This document shows positions 15,149 through 52,462 of a DNA stretch of 52,462 nt, one piece after another; within the stretch, counting starts at the first letter, position 1, and the number at the start of each line of letters is the position of its first letter. The translations under genes were made by a program, and so were the position numbers. The stretch covers positions 1-52,462 of the forward strand of contig CALVUS010000001.1 in the NCBI GenBank assembly GCA_944363665.1. The letters run 5' to 3'. The notes beneath the pieces were generated by a model. That model did not search any database and was not told where the DNA came from. It saw nothing but the letters and a program-made list of their open reading frames with translations. This stretch comes from an uncultured Bacilli bacterium (GTDB lineage Bacteria; Bacillota_I; Bacilli_A; RF39; UBA660).

Positions 15149-15171
15149 TTTTTTTTATTATGTAATGTCAA

Positions 15172-16865: not shown

Positions 16866-16878
16866 ATTTACTCCTTTC

Positions 16879-17994: not shown

Positions 17995-18000
17995 CTCTTT

Positions 18001-18765: not shown

Positions 18766-18767
18766 TT

Positions 18768-19979: not shown

Positions 19980-19992
19980 TACTTATTCACCC

Positions 19993-22900: not shown

Positions 22901-23577
22901 CTTCCTTCTGCTCCATAAATCATAACAATATTAGGATCATACCAGCTACCATACTTTCCAGCGATATATCTTTGGATGCATGCTTGATCATTTGTCGTAC
23001 AGCTATTTAATCCAGGAACTATTTCTGTAGCTCCCATGCCACTATAAATTGTTGCCCAATGAACACCTAGATTTATTAAAGATGATCCTTTTGCTCGATA
23101 TGCGGCAGATAATGTTGCATTACCACCCCAACCATAAAGTCCCATTGTAAATGCCCGTTGAGCTATACTTGTAGCTAAATAAAGGTCATTGCCACTAACA
23201 ACAGTTCCGTTATCTAAAGTTAAACTAGAATTAAATTGATTATATCCATTTGCTAAAATAGCTAATATCCCATGATCATATGAATTTACTTCATCATGTT
23301 GGCTATCTGCTCCTAAAATACGATCTATTGTATATGAGCCTCCACCTTGAAGATGTGGATCTTCACAGTATGTTACATAATCTTTACCATTTACACTACT
23401 ATGATATTTTATTTCACCATTATAAGTATAATTCCCATATCTAAGACCATCAGCTGTTACAGTCCCATCTTTTACAATAGAAAAGCTAGCACCTTCACTA
23501 AAATCAATAGCTTTAACTTCATTAAAGCCTACAATAAACATTAAACCTAATATTAATAATTTTACACTTTTTTTCAT
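19993..23577 (-). CDS. Large secreted Cys-rich acidic protein, putative adhesin with an N-terminal thioester-(TQXA)-like domain
   Basis: 1194 aa; signal peptide ...NEVKA/IDF; YCEDP (Cys71), ANGY, then LYLATSIAQRAF (Gln140), resembling the YC..P / GY / ATQxA(I/V)W pattern of Cys-Gln thioester domains; 10 Cys in 39 residues at DNA 20584-20700; no LPXTG motif or C-terminal TM helix. Confidence 0.6.
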   Translation of the reverse strand: MKKSVKLLILGLMFIVGFNEVKAIDFSEGASFSIVKDGTVTADGLRYGNYTYNGEIKYHSSVNGKDYVTYCEDPHLQGGGSYTIDRILGADSQHDEVNSYDHGILAILANGYNQFNSSLTLDNGTVVSGNDLYLATSIAQRAFTMGLYGWGGNATLSAAYRAKGSSLINLGVHWATIYSGMGATEIVPGLNSCTTNDQACIQRYIAGKYGSWYDPNIVMIYGAEGSTSYNVIYAAQKLFRLGVEAASDYYRNKNLAFSIDARVGDTESVEQNETTATEYVYINMEVNNIAAEDGYINNVQLDCPQCNANGITIESIEYSTETTDWATLDASTDISKALPTGSLTGTQDKRSGIIRIRILVSKDLTIEECTAADFTLSYDYHDTSVEYYGALLRPSTTNTQRFFVVAKADEEGGAQTGEVSGRITCAEQSEICETVIEVPVCSDDEEDAVANVYTSEEIKKCILNNTDEAQNSYLLSEENGGVNSDNEFCSVYCKEDYISWTDNEEALGGITLDPIISDVNCGTNFKLTARVEGKKDCYTAGTVDDMGIDIEKYLDEIESAQSRMVDAMNRWNAANARVESWIENTIEGECGYGTKRDTIEIEWDDYLSYEFSFVNENGYFSSENIDDSGTSFTDSHNHYCCDVSPEGGCTKHCCGGIDESANEKYDDWLEDWQEKRDQAEEDLEEAYEDYQKLITDLNACTGMWENVYQFNQKIKYFYNEFRGEDEPMFTTYYDLLKQSSITDADYLIPIEDEFEYESEIEVCYETADDKYVCEGASDVFDMTGETDSDDPTEAGNITQDIQDIDEWNYASNVSGAYENRDYVVCFAGDGCETDSRDISQARFIRKTVKKAQSYETPTVFYQIAANGKITIVNDYAGDKLQLEALENVLPVSTSVVGGGIYQLLIEDLGEFYDDGELGRLIDVVRLDVNPDGTTEIEINDESVAYAKGIDEETFDGNYLCYYESDCRSPECPNCDFECDEDGCEWVDCPECVFDCVNCIFNLDELDINVKPIISTDVNSVDRQPGYNWTTAEDWTNWNITTSMAPLQLLVDKAEATIDEIETENEMIYDKTGDDSSLAFSVRLTSDLINELKSINASAEGSGGYANDTLTCYDATLEDGTVVPDIYCYSEVIDELIADYGDDITVYNRTPVGSRSDDNDAANADGYWTLWSTWEMPTLQENSGALTVIGGPSWK

Positions 23578-24338
23578 ATTTCACTACTCCTACGTCTTTT
23601 TATAATTACAACCACTACTATCCCCACTATTACAACTAAACTAATTCCTCCTACTATAAAAGGAACTTTATGTTCAGATATAAATTTTCCTATAGACTCC
23701 AACCAAGATAAATCTTCTTCATCATTAGCATCACCGTTTTGGATTCTATCTACCTCAGCAGTAACATTATCAATAAAATCTGCAAAATCTATATCACCAA
23801 ATGTAACATATTCTTGACATAAATAATAATCAGATGCCACTTCACACATACCATAAGTTGAATAACTATTATATCTTGGCAATGTCAAAGTCATTGTCCT
23901 TATAGTGTCATCTTGACATCCATTATTGCCAGTTGATTTGACAGTTATTGTCAATCTTGCAACTTCGGACACGTCATTCCATTCAATAGCCAATGTGCCA
24001 TTATTAGTATCTGAAAAATTATATCTTGTTACATCGCTAGATTTATCACTACTTACTTCGATATAAAGATTTTCAGTTAAATTTAAAATGTTAATTTGCA
24101 AATAATCTGTCTTTGGAACCCAAGTTTCTTCTTCTTCGGTTCCTAAAATAGAATCTGGAGGCCCATATAAATTAGGATCTAATTCTTTTTCTTTAATTTC
24201 ATAATTTGCTCTTATCTCACTAGCTTCATTATTTAAAGTTGCCCTTTGGGTATAATCACAAGTACCAACCGCCTTTGCTGTACCAATAAACATTCCAAAA
24301 ACAGCTAGTGATAAAAATATATATTTCAATCTATACAT
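23574..24338 (-). CDS. Secreted, C-terminally tail-anchored protein (first gene of the operon)
   Basis: 254 aa; signal peptide ...GTAKA/VG; C-terminal TM helix plus KRRRSSEI; ATGA overlap with the 1194-aa gene. Confidence 0.55.
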   Translation of the reverse strand: MYRLKYIFLSLAVFGMFIGTAKAVGTCDYTQRATLNNEASEIRANYEIKEKELDPNLYGPPDSILGTEEEETWVPKTDYLQINILNLTENLYIEVSSDKSSDVTRYNFSDTNNGTLAIEWNDVSEVARLTITVKSTGNNGCQDDTIRTMTLTLPRYNSYSTYGMCEVASDYYLCQEYVTFGDIDFADFIDNVTAEVDRIQNGDANDEEDLSWLESIGKFISEHKVPFIVGGISLVVIVGIVVVVIIKRRRSSEI

Positions 24339-39284: not shown

Positions 39285-39878
39285 CTAATTAATTTTAAAA
39301 ATTTTCTTAATGATTAAACTGAGTATATAGGCAATTATTACCATTAAAATTACTGTTATTATACTGCTAGGATTTTGAAAACTTTCTACTATACCAGTAC
39401 CAACTTCCCCCCAGAAATACACTAAAAATATTTTACTAATTAAAATAGCTATAAAAAACTTCTTAAAATTCATATTTACTAAACCTGCAGCAATATTCAT
39501 CATAAATGCTGGAGTGAATGGTATTGATAAAATAACTGTAATTTTAGTTAAAGATAAATTTTCTATATAATTCATACATTTATTTAAAAGTTCAATATTT
39601 TTAATTTTTTTTACTACCCAATTTCTCAAGAATTTTTTTACAACAAAATAAGAAATAAGACAACCAATTATTGTACAAATCCACGAAATAATAAATCCTA
39701 AAATGTGTCCAAAAGCTATAAAATTAATTGTTATAAATACAAATAATGGTAATGCTGGTATTATCGATTCTAAAATAATTAGCAGACAACCTAAAAAAGG
39801 GCCATAAAAGCCCAATGAGTCAATAGTATCCATAATAAAATTATAAAAATCTTTAAATACTTCTCCCATAAAAATCAC
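39285..39878 (-). CDS. TVP38/TMEM64 (DedA-related, VTT domain) membrane protein
   Basis: 197 aa polytopic; YGPFLGCLLIILESIIPALPLFVF... matches the VTT-domain pattern. Confidence 0.7.
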   Translation of the reverse strand: MIFMGEVFKDFYNFIMDTIDSLGFYGPFLGCLLIILESIIPALPLFVFITINFIAFGHILGFIISWICTIIGCLISYFVVKKFLRNWVVKKIKNIELLNKCMNYIENLSLTKITVILSIPFTPAFMMNIAAGLVNMNFKKFFIAILISKIFLVYFWGEVGTGIVESFQNPSSIITVILMVIIAYILSLIIKKIFKIN

Positions 39879-39939
39879 TATTCTTATTATAGTACAAAAA
39901 TAGGAAAAATACTATTACAATTTCTTATAACTAATTTAG

Positions 39940-40200
39940 CTATTTACATTGAACAACTTGAGTAACATCATAACCGTAAAATTCTAGCATTGCTACAACT
40001 TTTTGACTTAAATGGCCTTTATTACAAATAATGTAATATTTTTTAGAATAATCTAAGCAAGATTTATAACTCATAAGAAGTTTATCTGCATAAATATTAA
40101 TACTATTTGGTGTTGGATTTTTTTGATAATCCAAAGGATGCTGAACATCTATTAGAATACCCATGCTTGGATTATATTCACTTAATTTAATTTTTTTCAT
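39940..40200 (-). CDS. Single-domain rhodanese-like protein
   Basis: 86 aa; active-site-like loop ICNKGHLS in rhodanese context. Confidence 0.6.
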   Translation of the reverse strand: MKKIKLSEYNPSMGILIDVQHPLDYQKNPTPNSINIYADKLLMSYKSCLDYSKKYYIICNKGHLSQKVVAMLEFYGYDVTQVVQCK

Positions 40201-40249
40201 AATACCACACTATATTTTATGTTTTTAAATTAAAATAAAAGATGACAAA

Positions 40250-42427
40250 TTAATCATCATCTCCAAAAAAATCATCAAAAAATTCATCATCAGAAATAAT
40301 ATTATCATCTATTATTTTACTATCAGAATCAATGTTTATCTTTGGTTTATCATTTTTAGCATTAACATTTTTTATGATATCATTATCATTACCTTTTTCC
40401 AAAGTTTCTTTATTTAATACCGAATCTTTAGTTTTTGGTAAATTTAGATCTTCAATATCAAATAATACATTTTTACCTGATTCTATATTTAAATTATTAA
40501 TTTGATTTTTACTTTCTTGTTCTTGCTTATCCAATTCTTTAAATTTTTCATCCAAATCTTTTAACATCTTATCTATATCCAAAGTGTTAAGGGCATTATC
40601 AGGATTAGGCATGCTATATGGATTTACTTCATTAAAGCCCATAAATGGTGATGCAGGCCTAAATGGATTGGGACTTCTAAACGGATTATCCCCTAATTCA
40701 GCCATCTTTTTACTTTTTTCTTCAGTAACAAATTTTTTTAAATCAAATATTTCTACTTCTTGTTTCATTCTCGTTGGATATGCTTCTTCTTTTCTTTCTA
40801 TTCCCCAATTCATTTTAAAATCAGGTTCTAATTTTGTTCTAAATGGATTCGTTCTAAGCCTTATGATAATTGCCTCAAATAACTTCATTTTTTGTAAATC
40901 AGTCACAGTGATAAGTGGTCTTGTTGCACTCTTATCTTTTTCATCAGTAATTTTAACTTCTCCACACATTTTACTAATTTCTTCTAAGGCTTTCATTTCT
41001 GTACTTATTAAATATACCCAGTTACCACAGTTACCTTTAATTATTTCAGCTACGTTATCACCATAAACATCATTTAATTGAGCAAAGTTTTGAATTATAA
41101 ATGTAAAACGTATATCTCTACTTCTAGCTGCTGATACCATAGCATCAACATCTTTAAGTGGAGGCATATTTGCAAATTCATCTAAAATGAAATTAGTTCT
41201 AAATGGTAATTTGCCACCATTTTCCTGAGCAACATCAATTAAAGTTTCATAACATTGTTTAATAAATATAGTCATTAAACTATGATATGTTTTCTTTTCA
41301 TCATGAATAATCATAAAAACAGCAGTTTTACCATTACCAATTTCTTTCATGTCAAAATCACTGTATGAAAGCATCTCACTTAAAGCTTCACCAGTTGCAA
41401 ATTTTCTAATTTTTTGTCTAAATGTAGATAGTTGGCCTCCTTTAGTTTCACTCGGAGCATTTATTACAGCAGATGCAAAAATGTATTCGTTAGACTTTTC
41501 GCCCTTCATTCCAAAATACTCTTTAATGTAATTACTAGTTGCATATCTTTCTTCACCAACAGTACTCATTACATTAATACTATTTAAATTTACTTCTCTT
41601 TCTTTTGCATCTTTAAATAAACCTAAAGCTAGACCGGAAAAATAGTCTGCTGAAGATTTTTCCCAGAAATCAGACTCTGACTTATTATTTGGATCATACA
41701 ATATATTTAAAGCTACATCATCTAACAATTCTATTGCTTTATCTTGATTACCACTACGATAATATTTTAAAGGTAGTGTTAAAGGATTCCAAGAATTACC
41801 ACGTAAAGGTTCTCGAAAATTTAAAACAATTATTTTATATCCCTTTTCTTTTAAATATGAAGCACTGTATTTATAAATTTCTCCTTTAGGGTCAGTAATT
41901 ATCATACTTTCACCCTTCTTAGCAAGTAAATTTACCATTGGTTTAACTATGGTTTGAGTTTTACCACTACCAGTAGAACCAATAACTAAATTATGATATT
42001 CTCCATTATCTACCCATATTTCCTTACCATTATTAATTAACGGAATACCTGCAGCATCTAAAGTTTCACTTTGAGGCAATACTTTAACTACATCACTTTG
42101 ACTTTTAATATCTTTATCACTAGCCCACTTAGAATAACCATCATTGGATTTTTCTTTAAATTTTATACCAATACCATGGCCACCTTTATCTTTTTTAAAA
42201 ATATATGAAGAAACACTAGAAAAAATTGCTACTAAAGCCGCTATAAATAAAAACAATGTAACTGGTAAATACATCCCCGTAAAAGCTTTAAAAGGAAGCA
42301 AACCATAAAAAGTTCCTTCATTTGCAAGAGATGCTACATTTAATACTGCAATGGCACAAAGATATAATAATAAAACACAATAAATGCAAAATAATAAAAA
42401 ATCTTTTGGCTCAATTTTAAATTTCAT
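40250..42427 (-). CDS. virD4: Type IV coupling protein (VirD4/TraG family)
   Basis: 725 aa; two N-terminal TM helices, Walker A GSTGSGKTQT, Walker B FILDEFANMP; 151-aa low-complexity C-terminal tail ending DDEFFDDFFGDDD. Confidence 0.9.
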   Translation of the reverse strand: MKFKIEPKDFLLFCIYCVLLLYLCAIAVLNVASLANEGTFYGLLPFKAFTGMYLPVTLFLFIAALVAIFSSVSSYIFKKDKGGHGIGIKFKEKSNDGYSKWASDKDIKSQSDVVKVLPQSETLDAAGIPLINNGKEIWVDNGEYHNLVIGSTGSGKTQTIVKPMVNLLAKKGESMIITDPKGEIYKYSASYLKEKGYKIIVLNFREPLRGNSWNPLTLPLKYYRSGNQDKAIELLDDVALNILYDPNNKSESDFWEKSSADYFSGLALGLFKDAKEREVNLNSINVMSTVGEERYATSNYIKEYFGMKGEKSNEYIFASAVINAPSETKGGQLSTFRQKIRKFATGEALSEMLSYSDFDMKEIGNGKTAVFMIIHDEKKTYHSLMTIFIKQCYETLIDVAQENGGKLPFRTNFILDEFANMPPLKDVDAMVSAARSRDIRFTFIIQNFAQLNDVYGDNVAEIIKGNCGNWVYLISTEMKALEEISKMCGEVKITDEKDKSATRPLITVTDLQKMKLFEAIIIRLRTNPFRTKLEPDFKMNWGIERKEEAYPTRMKQEVEIFDLKKFVTEEKSKKMAELGDNPFRSPNPFRPASPFMGFNEVNPYSMPNPDNALNTLDIDKMLKDLDEKFKELDKQEQESKNQINNLNIESGKNVLFDIEDLNLPKTKDSVLNKETLEKGNDNDIIKNVNAKNDKPKINIDSDSKIIDDNIISDDEFFDDFFGDDD

Positions 42428-42484
42428 TGGATTACTTCCTTTCTTAACAAATATTATACAACATTTTCTTAATTATGAAAATTG

Positions 42485-43306
42485 CTAATTTCCATCAAAT
42501 GTTAGACTATAAGTATTATCAGTATATTCATATATTAAATATGTTGTTTCACCAGCATTACTAAAATAACCTTTTTGTATAAATATACTATCATATTGAG
42601 AATCTAATAAATTTATAAAATAACCTATCCTATATGTTGGAGACACTAATATATTTGCTGAATTTACAAGCTCTTTTTCTAATACTATTATTTCTCCGTT
42701 TAAATTTACATATAATAAATTAAAATATACAGATTGATCTATCTCACTAAATATATTTGATAGAGATATTACTTTATCCATTATTCCGTTACTATCTAAA
42801 TCAAGCATTACTTTTTGATTTGTTGACAATGACATCATATCAATGTTATTTTCTAAAATTGTGGAAGCTTCTTGTAAATCAATAGAATCTACAACAGAAA
42901 TATTATTATTTCTAACATTCATTTTTAATCCACTTGTTCCTGCAACTAAATCTCCATCATAATCTATATAATTATTATTTTCATCAAATATATTCCAATT
43001 TACTCCTTTTTTTAAATAATAATTTCCAAAAAATGTTTTATTTACATAAATATCAAATAAGACTTCATCAAATTCTTCATTACTAGCTAGTGACCATATT
43101 CCACCATTATTTTTTAATTGAATTATATTGTTTATTTCCAAATAATCATATGTAATTTCCACTGGATCATTATCAATATCAATATTCGACCCGTTATTAT
43201 CGGGATTATCATTTGGTTCTTCTTTAACCATAAATATAATGCCAACTATTAAAGCATATCCCAATAATAATATTAAAATTAATATACAAGCTGCCTTTTT
43301 ATTCAT
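42485..43306 (-). CDS. Membrane-anchored T4SS-associated protein in the PrgL/VirB8-like position
   Basis: 273 aa; N-terminal TM helix; call based on position between the hydrolase and coupling protein genes; no motif evidence. Confidence 0.35.
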   Translation of the reverse strand: MNKKAACILILILLLGYALIVGIIFMVKEEPNDNPDNNGSNIDIDNDPVEITYDYLEINNIIQLKNNGGIWSLASNEEFDEVLFDIYVNKTFFGNYYLKKGVNWNIFDENNNYIDYDGDLVAGTSGLKMNVRNNNISVVDSIDLQEASTILENNIDMMSLSTNQKVMLDLDSNGIMDKVISLSNIFSEIDQSVYFNLLYVNLNGEIIVLEKELVNSANILVSPTYRIGYFINLLDSQYDSIFIQKGYFSNAGETTYLIYEYTDNTYSLTFDGN

Positions 43307-44912
43307 TTATATCCTCCACATTAAATAATCTTATTCCATCAACATCTGAAACATTTATATTAGAAATTTTACCACCAGCAGGATCTCTAGTAACAAAAGT
43401 ATTGCCTGCCATTCCGGTATAAACGACAAAATGTCCTGCAACATGCTCAGAATTTACAAAATGCAATAAAATAATTTCGTAATCTTGAGCATAGGATTGA
43501 ACTGTTGAAATTTTATTTTCATTGCTTCCCATTAGTGCAACAGATGCAACAAAGTTTAACGATGGTACTATTTCTTTTAATTTTGAACAGCTCCAATTTA
43601 TATTACCACCGGCATTAAAACAAGATCCTTCATTCAATTCGGTTACAAAAGTACCTGCATTAAAATTTTCTATACTAGTATCTAATTCTAAACAAGATAT
43701 TGCTATAGCAAGTGATGTCACTGCACAACCAGCAGCCCCCATTGTGCTAGAAGAATTACCTAAATGAATTCCTGACCAATTAGGATCACTTTGAGAATAT
43801 AAGGTGCAAGTATTAGAATAAAAATTACATACTGCTGGATTTAAATTAAATATATTATATCTAACTTCGGACATCGAAGATACTTGCCACTTAGCATATG
43901 CTAATTGATCTTCATCAGTAGTAGCTACACAATTAGTACCTCCGCCTGCATCACAGTAGGAATTACTGGAACATATTTGAGCAACTTCGTTGGCTCTAGA
44001 TGAACTCATATATTCTTTTATAACTTCGTAATATTTACATCCACCTAGGCTATAACTACCTGGATTATACCAATAAGATCCGATATAAGCATATCGTGAC
44101 ATCATCTCATCTACACTAATATATTGAGAAACATTTTCTATAAATGCGAGTACTCCCTCATCAAAGCTAGGATAACTATCACAACTTGAGGAACCATTAA
44201 AGCATCCTATTCCCCAATAATTGTTAGTTTGTCCTCCTGGTGATCCACCTTCTTTAATTGCTCTAACAATAACTAATTCCGGATTTATATTATTTTTAAC
44301 TGATAAATCATAAATTGAATCTGCATTTTCTATAAATGTACTAGCATATGAGTAATTACTACCTGTAAAGTAATCTTCTACATAACTTATAAAATCACTT
44401 TTAGAAAGAGAGGTTGTGTTTAAAGGAAATTCAGAACAATTTTCTAAATACGAAGAACTATATGAATTATTATCTTCTATGCTACCACCCAATATTACTA
44501 AAATAATTATTAATAATATAACAATAATAACTATAACTACTAAAATCCATGGGTTTGCTGCTATTAAAGCACCTATTTTAGCTGCAACTGCACCAGTAGC
44601 TTTTGTTGCTGCTTTACCAGCAGCTTTTCCAGCTTGCTTTGCTCCCTCTTTTACAGCTGTTTTGGCAACTTCTTTACGGGTACTATTTGTATCTTCCTTA
44701 GTTTCTGATTGACCAGCATTATCTTTTATATTTTCATTAGATTCTGGTGTTTCTTCAATAGAATCTTCCTCTGTATTTTCTGTTTCTTCTGGAGTTTCTT
44801 CCTCATCTAGATCTTCTTGCATAGAAAAAGTGCCTAATCGTCTTTCTTTATCATGATTAGGATCATAAAGTAATCTATTATTAGAATTATTTATACTACT
44901 TTTTCTATTCAA
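43299..44912 (-). CDS. Bifunctional cell-wall hydrolase (VirB1 analog): GH73-like glucosaminidase plus C39-like cysteine peptidase
   Basis: 537 aa; acidic N-terminus, Ala/Lys-rich segment, TM helix; NINPELVIVRAIKEGGSPGGQTNNYWGIG (GH73-like); MGAAGCAVTSLAIAI and AGHFVVYTG (Cys/His of a C39_2-like peptidase). Confidence 0.65.
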   Translation of the reverse strand: MNRKSSINNSNNRLLYDPNHDKERRLGTFSMQEDLDEEETPEETENTEEDSIEETPESNENIKDNAGQSETKEDTNSTRKEVAKTAVKEGAKQAGKAAGKAATKATGAVAAKIGALIAANPWILVVIVIIVILLIIILVILGGSIEDNNSYSSSYLENCSEFPLNTTSLSKSDFISYVEDYFTGSNYSYASTFIENADSIYDLSVKNNINPELVIVRAIKEGGSPGGQTNNYWGIGCFNGSSSCDSYPSFDEGVLAFIENVSQYISVDEMMSRYAYIGSYWYNPGSYSLGGCKYYEVIKEYMSSSRANEVAQICSSNSYCDAGGGTNCVATTDEDQLAYAKWQVSSMSEVRYNIFNLNPAVCNFYSNTCTLYSQSDPNWSGIHLGNSSSTMGAAGCAVTSLAIAISCLELDTSIENFNAGTFVTELNEGSCFNAGGNINWSCSKLKEIVPSLNFVASVALMGSNENKISTVQSYAQDYEIILLHFVNSEHVAGHFVVYTGMAGNTFVTRDPAGGKISNINVSDVDGIRLFNVEDINE

Positions 44913-44926
44913 TTAAACCACCTTAA

Positions 44927-46711
44927 CTAATAACCTCCACCGTAGCCAAATGAGTCCAATTCTTCTTGAGTTATTAAAACTCTTATTTGCATTCTTTTAT
45001 TTCCACAAATAAATAATGCTTGTCCTTGTTCATAATATTTAATTGCTTGCTTTTCAGTTTCATTTAAATCTATTAATTTTGATAAATCTTCTACAGCTTG
45101 TTTTCTAAGTCCCATAACTATGTAGTAAGAAGCATTATCAAATATTGCTTTTCCATGTGTAATTATATTTGGTGCAGCAAAGTCTGTTGGTTGTTGAGTA
45201 ATAATAATTGTCCCTGTATTATATTTTCGACTACGACGTTGTATTTGAGCCAAAAATTCAGCTCCTAATTCATTGTGACCTGATAATAAAACATGTGCTT
45301 CATCAACCATCATAACAGTATTAACTGATTTATCTAGACATAGACCCCATGCATATTTTAAGACATTAAAGAACAATGCATTTTTAATGTTTTCATCACT
45401 ATTCATTAGTTCTTTTATATTAAATACTATAAAATCACTTTCAAAATGTAATGTAGTATGCCCAGTAAAATAATATCTAAGTTCTTTTACTAAAGGTCTA
45501 ATCTTAAGTTCTAGTCTTTCCATTACATCTCTTTCATGGGTTGCATCAGTCATTGATAACAGTCTTCCTCTAATTGTAGCATATACGTCATCAAATGTTG
45601 GATAATCAGCACTGGTAAGTTTAGTAAAATCCGTATCATAATCTATTTTATATCTTTTATATGTATCTTGTACAACTTCACTAAACATTGTTAATACATC
45701 ATCTTCTATACTTGGAGAATAATACTTCATAAATGCTTTTATTTGTTGAATTGTTCTAGTTAAAACGGTGTAACCTAATCCTTGAGCAATTTCATCTTCA
45801 TCAGCATCGATAACTATTTCGAGAGGATTAATCATACCAAACTCTCCACCTTTACCTAAATCGATAAAATCGCCACCAAAAGAATTTGTCATTTCTTCTA
45901 GCTCGCCTTCAGGGTCGACACATACAATCTTAAAACCATTTCTAATATGAGTTCTTAAAAGTACTTTGGCAGCTGTTGATTTACCACTACCTGACATACC
46001 AAGTAATATTAAATTAGCATTATTTCGATTATTTTCTTTTTGTATTTGGTATAAAAATTGATTAAATAATATAACTCCCCCAGATGCATCTACACCTAAA
46101 AGTGTAGCATTTCCTGGATCTTTAATATTATCAAATATAAAAGGATACATTGCAGCAATTGTAACTGAGGGAATCGGGGTTCCAATTCTATTTTCTATAT
46201 CTTGCGGAGGAAATATCGGAAGTATCGATTTTAATGCCTTTTCTTGTTCAAACATTAAAGATACTGCTCGCATTCCCATTGCATCTAAATAACTTCTCAC
46301 TTGAATTTTACGTAACTCTAATTCTTCTTTATTATCAGCTGTAATCATTAAATGCATTTGAAAATCAAATATTCTTGCTTGTGTTGCTGCAAGCATTTGA
46401 ATAAATTGTTCCAAAGACTCATAATCTTGACGTATTTTTTCTTGCATTGTTTGATCTTTTTCGCTTTGATAACGAACTTTTAAATCAGCAATTTCCTTGT
46501 TAAGCATTTTTTGTAATACTGAAAATTGAATCGGAATATGCTTTATTGCAACTTTTACACCATTAATATTTGTTAAATCTGACAAATATCCTGGTGGTAT
46601 ACTTCTTGGAAAAGCAATTACTGTCATAATAGTAGAATATTTACCACCAATAACAAATTCAGTTGGTTTAAACTCCATCCCTTTTGGAGCAACTTCACTT
46701 TTTAATTTCAT
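44927..46711 (-). CDS. virB4: VirB4-family conjugation ATPase, C-terminal (ATPase) part
   Basis: 594 aa; Walker A GMSGSGKST, Walker B MMVDEAH; begins at the ATG directly after the in-frame TAA that ends the preceding ORF. Confidence 0.85.
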   Translation of the reverse strand: MKLKSEVAPKGMEFKPTEFVIGGKYSTIMTVIAFPRSIPPGYLSDLTNINGVKVAIKHIPIQFSVLQKMLNKEIADLKVRYQSEKDQTMQEKIRQDYESLEQFIQMLAATQARIFDFQMHLMITADNKEELELRKIQVRSYLDAMGMRAVSLMFEQEKALKSILPIFPPQDIENRIGTPIPSVTIAAMYPFIFDNIKDPGNATLLGVDASGGVILFNQFLYQIQKENNRNNANLILLGMSGSGKSTAAKVLLRTHIRNGFKIVCVDPEGELEEMTNSFGGDFIDLGKGGEFGMINPLEIVIDADEDEIAQGLGYTVLTRTIQQIKAFMKYYSPSIEDDVLTMFSEVVQDTYKRYKIDYDTDFTKLTSADYPTFDDVYATIRGRLLSMTDATHERDVMERLELKIRPLVKELRYYFTGHTTLHFESDFIVFNIKELMNSDENIKNALFFNVLKYAWGLCLDKSVNTVMMVDEAHVLLSGHNELGAEFLAQIQRRSRKYNTGTIIITQQPTDFAAPNIITHGKAIFDNASYYIVMGLRKQAVEDLSKLIDLNETEKQAIKYYEQGQALFICGNKRMQIRVLITQEELDSFGYGGGY

Positions 46712-47278
46712 TTACATCACCGCCCCAAAGTTTGTTTGTTCGCCACCATTTAAGAAATTATCCAAAATAACTCTTAAATCGTTATTAGAAGCTTGTGTTG
46801 ATTGCAAACCAGCACTAGCAAGACCACTGATTAAATTATGAATTTTTTTCTGAACAAGCTCTAATCTTTTTTCTTTAAATAATATATAGTATTCAGTATC
46901 AACAACATTGTATTCAACACTTGTAAATAAATTTGCTTTATTTATATCTTGCATAATTAATTTTTTAATTGCATTATTTTGAGAATTATTATACATAAGC
47001 TGCAATTGTGATACATAAACATCAATATCAACAGGACGATCTGCAATAAGTAACCAAAACTCAAAATCAATACTATTATAAAAATTTCTTAAATTATAAA
47101 TAACATTATTTTGAGTTCCAGCATCTAAAATGAATATATTTCTTGGTGTTATTTTAACACCAGTAACATAAGATCCATCTTGTAATTGAATCATTCCATT
47201 TATTATTTGTCTTATAGGAAGCCAATCCTCTGTATAATTTTTACTATTATCAACTGCACTATTCAACTTCTGAGTCAT
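46712..47278 (-). CDS. virB4: VirB4 N-terminal domain encoded as a separate ORF
   Basis: 188 aa; DWLPIRQIINGMIQLQDGSYVTGVKITPRNIFILD resembles the N-termini of PrgJ/TcpF-type VirB4 proteins; same frame as and contiguous with 44927-46711. Confidence 0.6.
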   Translation of the reverse strand: MTQKLNSAVDNSKNYTEDWLPIRQIINGMIQLQDGSYVTGVKITPRNIFILDAGTQNNVIYNLRNFYNSIDFEFWLLIADRPVDIDVYVSQLQLMYNNSQNNAIKKLIMQDINKANLFTSVEYNVVDTEYYILFKEKRLELVQKKIHNLISGLASAGLQSTQASNNDLRVILDNFLNGGEQTNFGAVM

Positions 47279-47573
47279 ATTTCACACACCAACCTCTCCA
47301 ATAATATTTTCTAGGACTAAGTATAAACGTTATTACATTTATGATAAATTGTAAAACATTATGGTAATACATAACAGGTGTTACTAAGAAACCAGTTATT
47401 AATGCAGGAAGCAAAATGAGAACCATTTCTACTGCCGATGCCTGATTAACAAGTATTAATAATAGCAATGTAATACCACAACCAGAACCAAATAATATTA
47501 AATCGACTGGTGTAAAAAATCCTAGTATTAATTGCGATTTTTTAGAATTTGCAGGTATTATATAATTATTCAT
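47259..47573 (-). CDS. PrgI/TcpE-family (VirB3-like) small membrane protein
   Basis: 104 aa; two TM helices, C-terminal RKYYWRGW; sits immediately upstream of and overlapping virB4, as in Gram-positive T4SSs. Confidence 0.65.
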   Translation of the reverse strand: MNNYIIPANSKKSQLILGFFTPVDLILFGSGCGITLLLLILVNQASAVEMVLILLPALITGFLVTPVMYYHNVLQFIINVITFILSPRKYYWRGWCVKYDSEVE

Positions 47574-47591
47574 TCCTTTTTATCCTTTCTT

Positions 47592-49742
47592 TTATTTATT
47601 TCCTTCTTTTTGTTTCTTTTCTTGCACTAACTTAGCAATTTCCGTAGTTACATCACCATTCTTATTCTTAAATTGTTTATCATTATATAGAATTCCACCC
47701 ACAGAACTTTCAAGAGTTTTCTTAGCAGCTTCAATATCACTAAAATTATTTGTACTTAAAGCTTGATTAATTAAATCCAATTGAGTTTGATCAATATCTT
47801 TCATTGATAAAGAATTAACTAATTCATTATCAGCATGTTGTCTCTTATATGTTTCAAATTTTTCAAATTGTGCTGTGAATCTTCCATCTCCACTTTGCAA
47901 TTTTTCGTGTATAGCACGCATTGAAGCCAACTTCACAGCAGTATCATATTTTTCAATTTCTTGTGTTTTTGTAAATATTGCAGCTGCCTCGGCATTTTTA
48001 AAGACATTACCATCCTTATCTTTCAAAATAGCTCCATTACGTTTATCATAAACTTCACCATTAGCATTTAATTTATAGAAATTAGTATATTCTGATAAAT
48101 CTCTCTCTTGAGCAGATTTTTTTAAACCTTGATAAGCCATTACACTTTCATTATCTGAAACCAAATCAAACAAATCTTTTTTAAATCCCATACCTTCTTG
48201 ATAAATAGCTTGTTCAGCTTGTAAATGTTCAAGACTAGTATTTTTACCAGCCCATTGGCTTATACCATATTTCAAGTCATCAACATGGCCAGCACCAACA
48301 CTAATCGCTCCACCAACGAATGGAATTTTACCAACATTATGTCCAAAAACCGTTTGATTTTGATGACTAGCTTTATAAGCTGCTCTTTTAGCCTTAGCCG
48401 CTCCAGCTGCTGCGGCACCTTTACTAGCTGCACTACGAACATCGCCAAATTTCTTTGCACCTCGAGCAGTATAACCTGATCTCACAGCAGCAGAGCCAGC
48501 TCCACCAATAGCACTCTTTATTGAAGAGAATAATCCGCCACCAGCTGCTCTAGTAGCATTATAATTTCTAATTCCAGCAGTTACTAGACCTCCAGCCGCG
48601 GCTCCAGCAATTAATCCACCACCCATGGTAAGCTTATCCATAATACCAAGCTTCATACCGCCAGTATCAAGACCAAATAATTCTCCAATTAATTTTGGAC
48701 ATTGTCTTATAAATATAACTACTCCCATTATAAGTAATGCTTGAACTATTTGTTCTTGAGCAAATCCACCTAGTAGATCAAAATCAATAGTTGAAAAATT
48801 ATCAATTATTTTAGTTAATAATAATACACCAATGCACATTACACCAATGCGAATAAATACTTCTAAAAATAAACTTATTACTTGTTTAGTCCATTTTGAA
48901 AAGGTATCTTTTAATTTTCCACCAGGTAAAATTCGACATACAACTGGTATTGGAGCAATTATTTGATAAAAAGCAAGTTTAACAACCCTAACAGCCAAAT
49001 CAAAGCAAAATGATAAAAGCACATAAGCTAAAAACAATCCAGCTAATGTAGAAATAATAAACATATAATCTATCTGTCCTTCATTAACTGCCGATGCAAA
49101 AGATGAATAAGCTGAAAATGATCTTGTTCCACTATAAACCTGATTATCAACAGTCATTAAATCTTCCCCATCACTATTTGTAATAAAATTCTTACAATCA
49201 TCAGAAAGTGATCCATCCGTTCTTAAAGTGCCTACTGAATAATTATTTCCATCACTAGTACACCACTCCTCGCTTTCATGAAAAAAGGCTCGAAACGTAT
49301 AATAAGACATTTGTCCACCTGATTTTTCAATTGTATCAGTACTACTATTATCACCTAAAATTATTTTAAAAATTGTATTATTATTTAAAAATACATTTTG
49401 TATATTAAAAGCTACACTAAATACTGTAGGTAGTAAAATAATGATAATTAAAGAGGTTAAAATGTTTTTCACTAAATTTGGAAATGAGCTTTCTCCTTTA
49501 GCAAAACTGTCAGGATTTATTATAGCTTTTAGTAAAGAATAAGCTAAAATAAATAGCATTATTACTCCTAAAACAATATATATGCTTTGCACAATTTCTT
49601 CATAATCATTATTGCTAAAAATATTAATTTTTGCTAAAAAAAGAAATATTTCATAAAAATAGTTGACTAAATTGTAAACAATTCCATCTAAAATTAATAA
49701 AAGTGTATACACTCCTGTAATAAGTGTCCCTACTATGTCCAT
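47592..49742 (-). CDS. VirB6-like polytopic channel protein (PrgH/TcpH/ConG analog)
   Basis: 716 aa; at least 6 TM helices, a Gly/Ala-rich segment (GGGLIAGAAAGGLVTAG...) and a soluble C-terminal region of about 270 aa. Confidence 0.65.
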   Translation of the reverse strand: MDIVGTLITGVYTLLLILDGIVYNLVNYFYEIFLFLAKINIFSNNDYEEIVQSIYIVLGVIMLFILAYSLLKAIINPDSFAKGESSFPNLVKNILTSLIIIILLPTVFSVAFNIQNVFLNNNTIFKIILGDNSSTDTIEKSGGQMSYYTFRAFFHESEEWCTSDGNNYSVGTLRTDGSLSDDCKNFITNSDGEDLMTVDNQVYSGTRSFSAYSSFASAVNEGQIDYMFIISTLAGLFLAYVLLSFCFDLAVRVVKLAFYQIIAPIPVVCRILPGGKLKDTFSKWTKQVISLFLEVFIRIGVMCIGVLLLTKIIDNFSTIDFDLLGGFAQEQIVQALLIMGVVIFIRQCPKLIGELFGLDTGGMKLGIMDKLTMGGGLIAGAAAGGLVTAGIRNYNATRAAGGGLFSSIKSAIGGAGSAAVRSGYTARGAKKFGDVRSAASKGAAAAGAAKAKRAAYKASHQNQTVFGHNVGKIPFVGGAISVGAGHVDDLKYGISQWAGKNTSLEHLQAEQAIYQEGMGFKKDLFDLVSDNESVMAYQGLKKSAQERDLSEYTNFYKLNANGEVYDKRNGAILKDKDGNVFKNAEAAAIFTKTQEIEKYDTAVKLASMRAIHEKLQSGDGRFTAQFEKFETYKRQHADNELVNSLSMKDIDQTQLDLINQALSTNNFSDIEAAKKTLESSVGGILYNDKQFKNKNGDVTTEIAKLVQEKKQKEGNK

Positions 49743-49752
49743 TTTAACTCAC

Positions 49753-50205
49753 CTAACCAATTCCACATGTACCATATACACCAAGCAAACTCATAATAAA
49801 ATTTACTAATATTGGCAAGAAAAATAGTATAATGCAATATACAAATCTCAATCCAGTTGTCTTACCAGCTTTTTTTAATGCATCTTTGTCATTAGATACT
49901 ATAGCCTTCAAAAATTCAATTGTGCTTAAAACTAATAGTGCTGCAATAGCAATATATTTCATTATATCTAATACAAATTGGATCCAATAAGCCGGTTGTT
50001 GATCATTCCTTGGATCTCCAAGTATTCCTTCACAATCAAGACTTTCATATTCGGTAATATCTGAATCAACAACTTTTTCTACATAATTTTTAGATTCATT
50101 TATTGTATAATTTTCAAATACTGATGCACTTACTGTATTAGAAAAAGTAAAAAAAGATAAAAGTATTATAACACTTAGCAAAAATTTATTTTTAAAAATT
50201 GCCAT
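49753..50205 (-). CDS. VirB2/TrbC-like pilin-like protein, paralog C
   Basis: Signal peptide then two TM helices with an FLKAIVSNDKDALKKAGKTTG loop, paralogous to 11769-12122 and 12179-12532. Start taken at MAIFKNK (ATG 50205) after GGGAG. Confidence 0.55.
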   Translation of the reverse strand: MAIFKNKFLLSVIILLSFFTFSNTVSASVFENYTINESKNYVEKVVDSDITEYESLDCEGILGDPRNDQQPAYWIQFVLDIMKYIAIAALLVLSTIEFLKAIVSNDKDALKKAGKTTGLRFVYCIILFFLPILVNFIMSLLGVYGTCGIG

Positions 50206-50249
50206 TATAATCACTCCCATCTTTACTATTTGTGCAATTTCACACGTAA

Positions 50250-50278
50250 ATTATATCATTAATTTATTAATGTGACAA
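50250..50278 (-). promoter_or_regulatory. T4SS module promoter TTGTCA-N17-(TGa)TATAAT
   Basis: Minus strand: -35 = rc of 50273-50278, 17-nt spacer, extended consensus -10 = rc of 50250-50255. Confidence 0.55.
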
Positions 50279-50292
50279 TCCCTTTTCCACAT

Positions 50293-50323
50293 CAAAAAAC
50301 TCTATAAAAATTGATTTATAGAG
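50293..50323 (-). terminator. Rho-independent terminator of leuS
   Basis: CTCTATAAA / TTTATAGAG stem (50300-50308, 50315-50323) directly after the leuS stop, followed on the minus strand by TTTTTTG. Confidence 0.75.
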
Positions 50324-52462
50324 CTATTTAACTACAATATTTATTAATTTATTTGGTACAACAATAGTCTTAACTATATTTTTTCCATCAGTATAATTTT
50401 TTACGTTTTCTAAAGTCAATGCCTTTTGTTTTATTTCTTCTTCAGAAATTTCACCATTTGTCGGAATTTTACCTCTTATTTTACCATTTACTTGAACTAC
50501 TATTTCACAAATTTCTGCAATTATTTTACTTTCATCATAACTTGGCCACATCGATTCACAGATTGGCTTATAACCTAATTCTTCATTTAACTCTTCTGTG
50601 ATATGAGGAGCTATTGGATTAAGAAGGGTTAACAACAGTTGATAATCTTTTTTAGTTATATTTTTTTGATCATCATATGAATTAGCTAAAATCATAAGTG
50701 TTGAAATGGCTGTATTATAGGAAATATTTTGTAAATCATGATCTACTTTTTTGATACTTTTATTAATAATACTTTCTAATTTAGGAGAATATTCTTCACC
50801 AGCAATTACTTTATTTTTTAATCGTATTACTTTATCAATAAATCTTTTACATCCCTTTAATGAATCTGTACTCCATGGACAATCCATTTGATAATCCCCC
50901 ATAAATAATTCATAAGTTCTTAATGTATCAGCACCATATTCTTTCACAATATCATCAGGATTTATAACATTTCCTTTTGATTTACTCATTTTTTGATTAT
51001 CTGAACCTAAAACCATTCCGTGACTAACTCTCGTCCAAATCATTTCTTTATGTGGTACTAAACCGATATTATATAAAAATTGTACCCAAAATCTCGCATA
51101 AAGTAAGTGTCTAGCCGTATGTTCCATTCCACCATTATACCAATCGACTCTTCGCCAATACTTCATAGCATCCATTGATGCAAATTCTTTATTATTGTGT
51201 GGATCCATAAATCTTAAAAAATACCAACTTGACCCAGCCCAATTTGGCATAGTATCAGTTTCACGTTTTGCAGGTCCTCCACATTTAGGACAAGTTGTAT
51301 TAACCCAATCCGTAATTTTAGCAAGTGGACTTTCACCATTCTCAGTTGGTTCATATTCGGCAACATCAGGTAAAAGCAAAGGCAAATCTGCTTCATTCAT
51401 CGGTTGCCAGCCACATTTTTCACAATAAATCATTGGAATAGGTTCTCCCCAAAATCTTTGTCTTGAAAAAATCCAATCTCGCATTTTATAATTTATTTTT
51501 TTCTTACCACATTTATGCTTTTCTAAAAATTCTAGCATTTTATTTATGGCATCTTCTTTATTTAAACCATCTAAAAATCCCGAATTAATATGAATGCCAT
51601 CACCGGTATATGCTTCTTTAGAAATATCACTAGAATCAGAATATAATACTTGAATGATTGGAATATTGTATTTAATTGCAAATTCGTAGTCTCTCTCATC
51701 ATGGGCTGGAACAGCCATAATAGCACCAGTTCCATAACTAGCAAGAACATAATCGCTTATATAGATTGGAATTTTTTCTCCATTTACTGGATTTATGGCA
51801 TAAGCTCCCGTAAATACACCAGTTTTTTCCTTATTAAGTTCCGTTCTTTCCATTTCATTTTTTAATGTACAAGCCTTTTTATATGCTTCTACTTCTTCTT
51901 TTTTATCTTTAGTTGTAATTTTATTAACTAACTCTTGTTCTGGTGCTAAAACACAATATGTTGCTCCAAATAAAGTATCACATCTCGTTGTAAATACAGT
52001 AAATTCATAATCACTATTAGCTACTTTAAATATAACTTCTGCACCTATAGACTTACCAATCCAATTTATTTGGCCTAATTTTACTTTTTCGGCAAAATTA
52101 GTATCATCTAATCCCTTCAACAAATCTTCAGAATAATCACTCATTCTAAGCATCCATTGACTTTGCTCTTTTTGAACAACTTGAGTTCCACATCGCTCAC
52201 ATACTCCACCAGCAGCATCTTCATTAGATAAAACAGTTTTGCAATTTGGGCACCAATTAACTGGAGCAGTTGCCTTATATGCCATGCCATGTTTATAAAA
52301 CTGTAGAAATTGCCATTGTGTCCATTTGTAATATTCTGGATCAGTTGTGGAAAATTCTCTATCCCAATCAAATGAAAAACCTAAAGTTTGCATTTGTCTT
52401 TTAAAAGTCTTAATATTTTCTTTTACTGCTTCCTTAGGATGAATATGATTTTTTATTGCATA
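50324..52462 (-). CDS. leuS: Leucyl-tRNA synthetase (5' end outside the window)
   Basis: The frame stays open from M 52393 to the window edge (…YAIKNHIHPKEAVKENIKTFKRQ-MQTLGFSFDWDREF); KMSKS (QKMSKSKGN), CP1 editing region, Zn-binding CxxC pairs. Confidence 0.95.
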   Translation of the reverse strand, partial: YAIKNHIHPKEAVKENIKTFKRQMQTLGFSFDWDREFSTTDPEYYKWTQWQFLQFYKHGMAYKATAPVNWCPNCKTVLSNEDAAGGVCERCGTQVVQKEQSQWMLRMSDYSEDLLKGLDDTNFAEKVKLGQINWIGKSIGAEVIFKVANSDYEFTVFTTRCDTLFGATYCVLAPEQELVNKITTKDKKEEVEAYKKACTLKNEMERTELNKEKTGVFTGAYAINPVNGEKIPIYISDYVLASYGTGAIMAVPAHDERDYEFAIKYNIPIIQVLYSDSSDISKEAYTGDGIHINSGFLDGLNKEDAINKMLEFLEKHKCGKKKINYKMRDWIFSRQRFWGEPIPMIYCEKCGWQPMNEADLPLLLPDVAEYEPTENGESPLAKITDWVNTTCPKCGGPAKRETDTMPNWAGSSWYFLRFMDPHNNKEFASMDAMKYWRRVDWYNGGMEHTARHLLYARFWVQFLYNIGLVPHKEMIWTRVSHGMVLGSDNQKMSKSKGNVINPDDIVKEYGADTLRTYELFMGDYQMDCPWSTDSLKGCKRFIDKVIRLKNKVIAGEEYSPKLESIINKSIKKVDHDLQNISYNTAISTLMILANSYDDQKNITKKDYQLLLTLLNPIAPHITEELNEELGYKPICESMWPSYDESKIIAEICEIVVQVNGKIRGKIPTNGEISEEEIKQKALTLENVKNYTDGKNIVKTIVVPNKLINIVVK

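Follow-up and report, generated by a model that had tools for sequence, protein, structure and literature searches.

The question raised by this locus is what a type IV secretion system (T4SS) of the conjugation type is doing between core genes of a bacterial chromosome, with no relaxase, integrase or replication gene in its company. The locus lies on contig CALVUS010000001.1 of assembly GCA_944363665.1, from an uncultured Bacilli bacterium. The whole stretch analysed, referred to below as the window, spans 52 kb (52,462 nucleotides), has a G+C content of about 28% and carries nearly all of its genes on the minus strand. A first-pass annotation had left the choice between a decayed integrative element, a channel mobilised in trans and a domesticated machine, and had leaned towards a retained function. 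The reading that we favour, with a probability of roughly 0.6, is that the cluster encodes a domesticated, monoderm conjugation-type T4SS that is fixed in the chromosome, vertically inherited across the RF39-like lineage and held under strong purifying selection, and is not a mobile element. Every open reading frame (ORF) of at least 90 residues in the window was scanned against Pfam; for selected proteins, NCBIfam and Protein Data Bank (PDB) profile searches were added, as were AlphaFold2 (AF2) modelling and Foldseek comparison.

The cluster is an operon of eight co-directional ORFs on the minus strand (40250–50220), located between leuS (50324–52393) and a small rhodanese gene, with gaps of 0–57 nucleotides and two overlapping pairs. 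In the direction of transcription, the ORFs encode a VirB2-like hairpin membrane protein (49753–50205, with the ORF extending to 50220; 150 residues from the second ATG, 155 for the full ORF), a VirB6-like channel protein (47592–49742; 716 residues, six transmembrane helices in residues 1–360), a VirB3-like protein (47259–47573; 104 residues, two transmembrane helices), the N-terminal domain of VirB4 as an ORF of its own (46712–47278; 188 residues), the VirB4 ATPase (44927–46711; 594 residues, Walker A motif GMSGSGKST), a membrane-anchored, two-domain wall hydrolase equivalent to VirB1 (43299–44912; 537 residues), a membrane-anchored protein in the PrgL/VirB8 position (42485–43306; 273 residues, one N-terminal transmembrane helix), and the VirD4 coupling ATPase (40250–42427; 725 residues, two N-terminal transmembrane helices, Walker A motif GSTGSGKT and an acidic C-terminal tail). 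The seven-gene order of the first-pass annotation is thus recovered with all of its parts in place, but the ORFs number eight, as VirB4 is split and the 188-residue ORF had been missed.

The operon was also said to start behind a leuS terminator with a promoter of its own. The promoter is a sigma-70-type site with an extended -10 element (TTGTCA-17-TG-TATAAT; 50250–50278, minus strand) that matches 11 of 12 consensus positions and is the best-scoring site within 39800–50500. A comparable promoter (TTGACG-17-TG-TAAAAT) and a conserved 5' leader precede the first operon gene in at least 13 other species. The terminator part of the claim is less firm: an A+T-rich 9-bp hairpin with a T6 run (CTCTATAAA / TTTATAGAG; 50294–50323, minus strand), placed immediately behind the stop codon of leuS, was read by eye and is probably the leuS terminator, but it was not reported by a terminator scan, which needs at least three G-C pairs. 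The second ATG of the first ORF, at 50205, is preceded by a GGGAGTG ribosome-binding site and is likely the true start of this gene.

The two ATPases place the cluster among T4SSs. The 594-residue VirB4 protein matches the Mycoplasma integrative and conjugative element (ICE) VirB4 model NF045975 (7e-106), conju_CD1110 (6e-51) and TIGR00929 (1.8e-26), the Pfam families P-loop_TraG and AAA_10, and PDB entry 4ag5 (9e-56), with intact Walker A and B motifs; its NF045975 score of 354.8 bits is under the equivalog cut-off of 590 bits. VirD4 matches T4SS-DNA_transf (PF02534, 7e-53), TraG-D_C (7e-25) and TrwB_AAD_bind (1e-21), and exceeds the cut-off of conju_CD1115 (NF045973, 2e-87; 294 bits against 250), again with both Walker motifs intact. 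The cluster therefore holds the pair that marks a T4SS, a VirB4-family ATPase with a P-loop and a VirD4-type coupling protein. As in MPF_FATA-like systems, VirB6-like and VirB3-like proteins, with six and two transmembrane helices respectively, are encoded next to virB4. The VirB6-like protein matches NCBIfam MMCAP2_0566 (6e-18), Mbov_0396 (3e-10) and pLS20_p028 (3e-7) and Pfam TrbL (8e-4), all under the family cut-offs, and the VirB3-like protein matches Pfam TcpE (5e-4), also under its cut-off.

VirB4 is distributed over three reading frames. The 894-position VirB4_plasma profile is covered by the 104-residue ORF (positions 2–96), the 188-residue ORF (95–276) and the 594-residue ORF (294–891). 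The 188-residue ORF, which matches this profile with 1.2e-14 and is assigned to PF26593 (TraC-like) in precomputed annotations, overlaps the preceding gene by 20 nucleotides, and its stop codon abuts the next ATG. Since the three ORFs are collinear with one profile, what is a single polypeptide in the mycoplasma ICE corresponds here to three translationally coupled ORFs. A frameshifted pseudogene was considered and rejected, as the three ORFs are intact in 85–86 loci, show a ratio of nonsynonymous to synonymous substitutions (dN/dS) of 0.03–0.09 and are split likewise in a functional-looking ICE. The latter, from Thomasclavelia ramosa, encodes a 225-residue ORF upstream of its VirB4 that is homologous to the 188-residue ORF (E 8e-7); the split is therefore a trait of the family and not a sign of decay.

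The 537-residue protein had been called a cell-wall hydrolase, although Pfam, phmmer and PDB profile searches gave no hydrolase domain in it. It consists of an acidic disordered N-terminus, a transmembrane anchor (residues 123–141), a GH73-like domain and a C39/papain-like domain with Cys, His and Asp. The AF2 model of residues 151–537, built from an 86-sequence alignment, has a mean predicted local distance difference test (pLDDT) score of 91. In Foldseek comparison with the PDB, one domain matches PeiR, the PCAT1 peptidase domain, ComA (target TM-score about 0.6) and a Bacillus C39-like peptidase, and the other matches the GH73 glucosaminidase LytB; the match probabilities are 0.97–1.0, yet every E-value is above 0.008. 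The invariant residues of the family are the Glu of an R-A-x-x-E-G motif, an N-Y-W-G motif and the Cys/His/Asp set, and in homologues the N-terminal half of the ectodomain is joined to NlpC/P60, CHAP, M23, M15_4 or Amidase_5 domains. With the predicted fold, and with recognisable wall-degrading domains at the same position elsewhere, we accept the protein as a putative VirB1-type cell-wall hydrolase on structural and positional grounds.

The gene that follows the hydrolase encodes a protein of 235–323 residues in every locus with an adjacent VirD4. The 273-residue version of the window resembles PrgL, TcpC and VirB8 in position, size and N-terminal anchor, without a sequence match or a usable model: it has no Pfam or NCBIfam match, a PDB profile search gave chance-level matches only, a homologue search returned three relatives, and an AF2 model on this shallow alignment (pLDDT 41) was discarded.

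The first operon protein has a signal peptide, a variable stretch and then two transmembrane helices joined by a loop and flanked by cysteines (Cys-TM1-loop-TM2-Cys). The alignment of the hairpin family shows that two conserved cysteines flank the two conserved helices on the outer side of the membrane; speculatively, the pair might clamp the helical hairpin by a disulfide. The VirB2-like label given to this gene is consistent with its topology and its position in the operon, and the profile matches behind the label are weak (see below).

Having established what the cluster encodes, we turn to where it occurs. When GTDB was scanned with one genome for each species, a VirB4 relative turned up in 329 stretches; in the best 80, VirB4 is 80–96% identical. 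The exact VirB4 of the window is present on at least 22 metagenome contigs, with the same neighbours on all six contigs shown. The order hairpin protein, VirB6, VirB3, 188-residue ORF, VirB4, large protein, small anchored protein, VirD4, rhodanese, DedA, MscS and ADH is conserved, by tBLASTn mapping, in about 45 species-representative loci and in most of 80 further metagenome loci. In the window too, VirD4 is followed by the rhodanese (39940–40200, minus strand; 86 residues, single-domain, Pfam Rhodanese 5e-6), DedA/VTT and MscS genes, the Pfam matches of which confirm the proposed end of the module. Upstream, the context takes three forms: LysM-CmpB-Hydrolase_2 genes with leuS or tRNA-Trp, a FemAB-FemAB pair, or a Tad-like locus. 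A tRNA-Trp(CCA) gene lies 40–250 nucleotides upstream of the first T4SS gene, in the position of leuS, in loci L008, L009, L010, L012, L015, L019, L022, L023, L029, L044, L087 and L089. Firmicutes bacterium CAG:460 and Mycoplasma sp. CAG:776 are among the relatives, and a 2026 paper places the genera CAG-460 and CAG-776 in family UBA660 of order RF39, which it describes as genome-reduced, uncultured gut Bacilli without nucleotide synthesis (PMC13155120).

The genes are intact and under selection. VirB4 is an uninterrupted ORF of 593–595 residues in 85 of 86 loci, the exception being cut by a contig end; the VirB3-like ORF is likewise intact in 85 of 86, and VirD4 in all 48 loci that reach it. 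None of the 86 loci is pseudogenised, so the frameshifts that would have spoken for decay are absent. Nei-Gojobori estimates against the closest other species (L007), which are approximate as the synonymous divergence (dS) is about 1 and near saturation, give dN/dS values of 0.030 for VirB4, 0.037 for the 188-residue ORF, 0.071 for VirD4 and 0.086 for the VirB3-like protein, against 0.10 for leuS, 0.071 for ADH and 0.09 for MscS. The dS values are 0.85–1.0 for T4SS and flanking genes alike. The purifying selection that had been proposed as a check is thus present, at 0.03–0.07 for the ATPases and with the same dS as the flanks. VirB4 and VirD4 diverge in step with DedA and MscS (Spearman 0.7–0.83 for pairwise protein distances), and VirB4 evolves two to three times more slowly than DedA and MscS. 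Intact ORFs, low dN/dS and conserved context all support retention and domestication over decay, as the first-pass annotation had favoured.

The conserved motor is accompanied by parts that vary strongly within a species. On the contigs compared, VirB4 is identical to that of the window and the flanks differ by a dS of 0.01–0.03. The VirB6-like protein of one strain (L002) nevertheless shares just 45% identity with the allele of the window (dS 0.98) and 92% with that of another species (L007). At least three VirB6-like alleles occur in this one species. The hydrolase of the same strain is an unrelated 846-residue protein with M23 and phage-tail-lysozyme domains that has in common with the window version only the N-terminal anchor, and it is followed by a different protein of 300 residues. 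The first T4SS gene of another strain (L001) encodes 401 residues with an added ectodomain, compared with 150 in the window, and versions of 350–420 residues with an added ectodomain are found in other strains and species. Within the VirB6-like protein, the six-helix core is conserved, and a loop (about residues 121–210) and the C-terminal region (about 450–716, 270 residues) are hypervariable.

Across species, among loci with an adjacent VirD4, the position after VirB4 is always occupied by one protein of 520–1326 residues and one of 235–323 residues. The 36 large proteins at the hydrolase position carry M23 (15), Phage_lysozyme (11), SpoIID (11), Phage_lysozyme2 (10), CHAP (2), C39-like (2) and GDSL (2) domains. 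The motor thus stays fixed, and the parts that face outward are traded between loci as modules. Such swapping fits recognition or breaching of varied partner cells.

Is the cluster mobile? The claim that the window holds no mobility or replication genes was borne out: among all ORFs of at least 90 residues in the 52 kb, the Pfam scan found no relaxase, no tyrosine, serine or DDE recombinase, and no replication or partition family. Nor are a relaxase and an integrase to be found just past the window, as would be expected of an ordinary ICE; on strain contigs, precomputed annotations of the 3–6 kb beyond leuS show only LysM, CmpB, Hydrolase_2, amidase and nuclease genes. A search for flanking direct repeats in the window gave A+T-rich chance matches only, no tRNA gene is present in the 52 kb, and the G+C content is uniform across the window, with no compositional step. 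Among plasmid-borne VirB4 proteins, the best match is 29% identical. When 1.8 billion representatives were searched exhaustively, the VirB4 family comprised one 50% cluster and two clusters at about 45%, with the rest at 35% or less; in the next clusters, the proteins that carry a name are from Erysipelotrichales and from a Mycoplasmatota plasmid.

The nearest outside relative of VirB4 (34% identity) belongs to the Thomasclavelia ramosa ICE mentioned above (L167/L168), which provides a control. This element encodes, in order, SpaA-type adhesins, a sortase, SSB, a 704-residue VirB6-like protein, a 121-residue protein, the 225-residue ORF, VirB4 (606 residues), a hydrolase with Glucosaminidase and M15_4 domains, a Toprim primase and a large serine recombinase, beyond which housekeeping genes begin. 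The recombinase, primase and SSB lie within 7 kb of VirB4; VirD4 and a relaxase were not found within the 10-kb flanks. As mobility genes were recognised in this ICE, such genes near the RF39 cluster would have been seen.

An ordinary or decaying ICE, with its relaxase and integrase outside the window or recently lost, is for these reasons highly improbable. The gene set is of conjugative origin, the tRNA-Trp gene directly upstream in about 12 related loci belongs to the classical integration sites of ICEs, and a cI-like helix-turn-helix (HTH) gene follows VirD4 in a variable manner, all of which would suit an ICE. However, the 3' end of tRNA-Trp is not duplicated downstream in the two loci tested, the window lacks repeats, the housekeeping context is kept on both sides across species, and the 86 loci contain no pseudogenes, with dN/dS of 0.03–0.09, dS equal to that of the flanks and uniform G+C. 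Moreover, a real ICE of the nearest T4SS type carries recombinase, primase and SSB genes near VirB4, and nothing comparable is present here. The decayed integrative element that had been suggested is accordingly rejected on its intact ORFs, conserved context, lack of repeats and uniform G+C.

A DNA uptake or release device, as in Helicobacter ComB, the gonococcal genetic island or archaeal Ced, that works with a Tad-like pilus to scavenge DNA or nucleotides is unlikely, though more plausible than an ICE. RF39 has been reported to lack de novo nucleotide synthesis (PMC13155120), the T4SS is physically joined to a pilus module in some species (see below), a secreted-nuclease-type gene (Endonuclease_NS) lies a few kb upstream in one strain (L002), and VirB4 has weak matches to Ced ATPase models (CedD 4.5e-10). 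However, the Ced matches are confined to the P-loop region, and known uptake T4SSs such as ComB have no VirD4, which is here among the best-conserved genes; in Saccharibacteria, ComEC and type IV pili serve DNA uptake, and the essential role of the T4SS is independent of it (PMC12857230).

The main rival to the domesticated system proposed here is a mycoplasma-style exchange of DNA between RF39 cells: a chromosomal conjugation machine that acts through a distant relaxase, or free of a relaxase as in mycoplasmas, with recombination as its benefit. We regard it as possible but doubtful. The closest curated families are Mycoplasma ICE proteins (VirB4_plasma with 7e-106, Mbov_0396 and the Mbov_0395 pilin-like model), and the Mycoplasma ICE machinery carries out chromosomal transfer, with no relaxase identified (PMC6030558, PMC12857230). 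VirD4 has the TrwB_AAD_bind and TraG-D_C domains and an acidic tail, and strains of one species are mosaics of divergent alleles common across species, which implies frequent homologous exchange. Hypervariable VirB6-like proteins are, moreover, targets of exclusion in conjugation systems (F TraG/TraS, ICEBs1 ConG/YddJ), a point that we count for this rival. On the other side, the 52 kb and the flanks yielded neither a relaxase nor an oriT-like feature, and VirB4 is conserved beyond the housekeeping level over hundreds of species, which is more than facultative gene exchange predicts. The mosaic alleles are explicable by transformation or phage, and the shuffling of hydrolase domains suits foreign cell walls better than the cell's own wall.

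Several points weigh against the domesticated, vertically inherited T4SS as we read it. The VirB2-like label is weak, as PF18895 is reached by two of 32 family members, below the gathering score, and a PDB profile search of the hairpin family gave no match to a solved structure. The 273-residue protein has no assignable fold and is a counterpart of VirB8 by position. VirD4 and its acidic tail would suit DNA-relaxase substrates and protein substrates equally well. The relaxase search covered the 52 kb and the strain-contig flanks, which leaves room for a relaxase elsewhere in the genome. The co-divergence test was made on linked neighbours, and its outcome is also compatible with transfer of larger chromosomal blocks. 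In one sub-clade (L049–L083; VirB4 about 81–83% identical), neither VirD4 nor the hydrolase is encoded within 10 kb of VirB4, and the machine may there be split or reduced. Finally, the placement of the relatives in RF39 is suggested by genus names matched to those in PMC13155120.

In the sub-clade just mentioned, VirB4 is followed by collagen-like, guanylate kinase and glycosyltransferase genes, and some metagenome loci (L129, L130 and L160) have VirD4 and rhodanese genes with no VirB4 within 10 kb. VirB4-only and VirD4-only loci would fit a split system.

The operon is linked to a second locus of the window, a Tad-like pilus module on the minus strand (12547–19553) with genes for two CpaB/SAF proteins, a VirB11/TadA-type ATPase, two polytopic proteins of TadB/C size, two small pilin-like proteins, two proteins of TadE size and one protein of 328 residues. 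At its end, two tandem genes encode VirB2-like hairpin proteins of 117 residues each (11769–12532, minus strand). These are paralogous to the first T4SS protein, with 29–30% identity over 46–68 residues and pairwise E-values of 9e-9 and 4e-6; the paralog link between the two loci noted in the first-pass annotation is therefore real, though weak. One of the 117-residue proteins matches Pfam T4SS_pilin (PF18895, 1.5e-4, below the gathering score) and the Mycoplasma Mbov_0395 pilin-like model (0.011). The CpaB/SAF proteins give SAF/RcpC matches and CpaB with 2e-10, and the TadB/C-sized and pilin-like proteins have no family match. No prepilin peptidase was seen in the 52 kb. The ATPase (16879–17994) matches T2SSE (7e-28). 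It also matches the models for VirB11 (TIGR02788, 1e-33), the TadA family (TIGR03819, 2e-29) and TrbB, these three below their cut-offs, with the VirB11 model slightly ahead of the TadA-family model. If this ATPase works with the T4SS, all three classical T4SS ATPases are present; to our knowledge, monoderm T4SSs are normally without VirB11.

In the window, the T4SS and the Tad-like locus are 28 kb apart. In other species they adjoin: the Tad-like locus is directly upstream of the T4SS genes in seven loci (L050, L054, L062, L072, L077, L079 and L081), one of which (L062) shows a run of 17 co-directional genes from the pilus ATPase through VirD4 and rhodanese. In L136, the Tad-like genes are followed directly by the hydrolase, a 229-residue protein and VirD4. 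Hairpin genes of the 117-residue type sit, in other species, between the Tad-like genes and the VirB6 gene. The 28-kb separation looks like one of several arrangements of a single functional unit.

The neighbours of the Tad-like module are also of note. Directly upstream of it (19572–24338, minus strand) are genes for a DUF5411 protein (135 residues, 9e-58), a secreted, Cys-rich protein of 1194 residues with no family match, and a protein of 254 residues that begins with a signal peptide and is anchored at its C-terminus. These three genes also stand ahead of the Tad-like genes in L054, and their products may be an adhesin or tip part of the apparatus. On the opposite strand, and adjoining the two 117-residue hairpin genes, a gene at 10069–11613 (plus strand) encodes a 514-residue protein with an N-terminal transmembrane helix and a long stretch rich in Asn, Ser, Thr and Pro, with no family match.

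The system that most resembles the RF39 cluster is that of the Patescibacteria. Their T4SS, as attributed to Wang et al. 2023 (summarised in PMC12857230) and to Quinonero-Coronel et al. 2025 (PMC12102498), is chromosomal, mostly relaxase-less and derived from monoderm conjugation systems; its VirB2-like pilins are encoded in arrays, and epibiotic growth requires it (PMC12857230, PMC12102498). A 2025 review counts it as the one exception among monoderm systems in having VirB2-like subunits (PMC12857230). The RF39 cluster is likewise chromosomal, widespread in a genome-reduced lineage and without a relaxase nearby. It has the VirB1, VirB3, VirB4, VirB6 and VirD4 set and, with the weak support noted above, VirB2-like hairpin proteins in more than one copy; a pilus system co-occurs, and the hydrolases carry varied wall-degrading domains. 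In contrast to the Patescibacteria, the host belongs to class Bacilli of phylum Bacillota, and what comes nearest to its VirB4 among named relatives is from Erysipelotrichales, from a Mycoplasmatota plasmid and from the Mycoplasma ICE model, which argues against a place for this VirB4 within the monophyletic clade of the Patescibacteria. Because these relatives are not patescibacterial, the co-option of the RF39 system was probably an independent event, as judged from the sequences. The pilus partner is Tad-like, in some species within one gene block with the T4SS, as opposed to the type IVa pilus of Patescibacteria; there are only two to three pilin-like genes, some with large ectodomains; and the cassette polymorphism occurs within species. 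At the level of its genes, the RF39 T4SS thus appears to match the published system feature by feature apart from its VirB4 relatives, Tad-like partner and within-species cassettes. Essentiality and epibiotic growth are findings on the Patescibacteria.

The Mycoplasma ICE (CDS5 VirD4, CDS15/Mbov_0395, CDS16/Mbov_0396 and CDS17/Mbov_0397 VirB4) provides the best curated profile matches and has the same order of pilin-like protein, polytopic membrane protein and VirB4, and a relaxase has been identified in neither system. The RF39 VirB4 differs in falling below the equivalog cut-off (355 against 590 bits) and in being in three pieces. In addition, RF39 has a wall hydrolase and a VirB8-position protein, neither of which is present in mycoplasmas (PMC12857230), and its cluster is without a DDE transposase and is fixed in the chromosome and not mobile.

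The parallel drawn earlier to prgH-I-J-K-L...pcfC of pCF10 holds for gene order, with the closest curated families being instead the Mycoplasma ICE and Clostridioides difficile CTn4-type models. As in pCF10 (PrgH-I-J-K-L/PcfC), pIP501, ICEBs1 and CTn4 (CD1108/CD1110/CD1115), genes for VirB6, VirB3, VirB4, a hydrolase and a small anchored protein are followed later by VirD4. VirD4 exceeds the CD1115-family cut-off and the hydrolase has two domains, as in monoderm conjugative T4SSs, and an N-terminal VirB4 part encoded as its own ORF is found in the Thomasclavelia ICE (L167). Those systems, however, reside on plasmids or ICEs that also encode a relaxase, a recombinase, SSB or primase, and adhesins that depend on sortase or are of the PrgB type, none of which is in the RF39 cluster; in place of the adhesins, RF39 has the VirB2-like protein and the Tad-like module.

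The Rickettsiales rvh T4SS is a further parallel, being vertically inherited in a reduced genome, not linked to a mobile element and equipped with unusual, variable VirB6-family proteins. It differs in being a diderm P-type system in scattered islands, with duplicated components and eukaryotic targets, and has no close sequence relation to the RF39 system. No description of a system such as that of RF39 was found in the literature on RF39 with T4SS or VirB4, including RF39 genomics papers.

From the observed gene content, chromosomal fixation, selection, cassette variation and Tad-like linkage, we infer how the machine might be assembled, which partner cell it might meet and what it might carry. 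One promoter would drive the eight-gene operon. The VirB6-like and VirB3-like proteins would form the membrane channel, energised by the two-piece VirB4, and the anchored GH73-like/C39-like hydrolase would open the peptidoglycan. The 273-residue protein and the VirB2-like hairpins, possibly clamped by a disulfide, would make up the part outside the membrane. VirD4, by means of its ATPase domain and acidic tail, would recruit a substrate from the cytoplasm and pass it to the channel. The Tad-like pilus module, with which the system is coupled in evolution, would probably make or hold contact with another cell. The outward-facing parts that are swapped between strains as cassettes are the loop and tail of VirB6, the hydrolase, the 273-residue protein and the hairpin ectodomain.

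For the domesticated T4SS, we favour a role in contact-dependent exchange with other bacteria that would serve the dependent lifestyle of the cell itself, much as the T4SS of Patescibacteria does, over transfer of a mobile element. Function at other cells is suggested because the motor is conserved beyond housekeeping genes, the hydrolases resemble enzymes that act on foreign walls, and the lineage is reduced and reported to lack nucleotide synthesis. Going one step further, RF39 might be an epibiont or parasite that uses the T4SS and the Tad-like machine to draw from, or inject into, a host cell, with a probably independently acquired, Patescibacteria-like lifestyle and with cassettes that set the host range. 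This extension is tentative, and we give it no more weight than DNA exchange between RF39 cells.

In the guts of humans and animals, RF39 is prevalent; it has no cultured member, and one study links it to host growth traits (PMC9606305, PMC13155120). A T4SS that is kept more tightly than a tRNA synthetase across such a lineage is a strong clue to the lifestyle of these reduced cells and suggests a route for their culture; if the epibiont reading is true, RF39 would be culturable only together with a partner bacterium. If the domestication proposed here is correct, it would be a second case of a monoderm T4SS turned into a host-owned organelle, probably independently. VirB2-like proteins in a system related to those of Mycoplasma and Erysipelotrichales ICEs also bear on the origin of the Patescibacteria pilins, a question left open in PMC12102498. 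What is new here is the swapping of divergent VirB6-like and hydrolase/273-residue alleles within one species and the 17-gene T4SS-Tad block. Neither of these, nor the Patescibacteria parallel, is in the first-pass annotation. The cassette polymorphism within a species offers a natural handle on specificity, and the fused block points to cooperation of two machines that are usually studied apart.

Some minor features were observed around the operon. Where a locus extends far enough, the rhodanese gene nearly always comes just 3' of VirD4. It adjoins VirD4 even where VirD4 sits apart from VirB4 (L129, L130 and L160), and it still follows VirD4 in loci with an HTH gene inserted between them. The 49-nucleotide gap between VirD4 and rhodanese in the window contains no terminator-like hairpin, and the rhodanese gene may be co-transcribed with, or functionally tied to, the VirD4 operon. 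The inserted gene encodes a cI/Xre-type HTH protein of 252 residues and occurs between VirD4 and rhodanese in some strains of the species found in the window and in many other species (L001, 16555–17313; L003; L006); it is absent from the equivalent site of the window (40200–40250), a presence/absence polymorphism of a possible regulator.

The leuS gene of L001 (2779–5592) is called as 937 residues with a NUDIX match, compared with 798 residues in others. Proteins with collagen-triple-helix repeats flank the T4SS cluster in CAG:776-like and CAG:609-like genomes (L053, 12134–15310; L030, 2056–2895), and one such flanking protein has a BclA C-terminal domain of the exosporium type.

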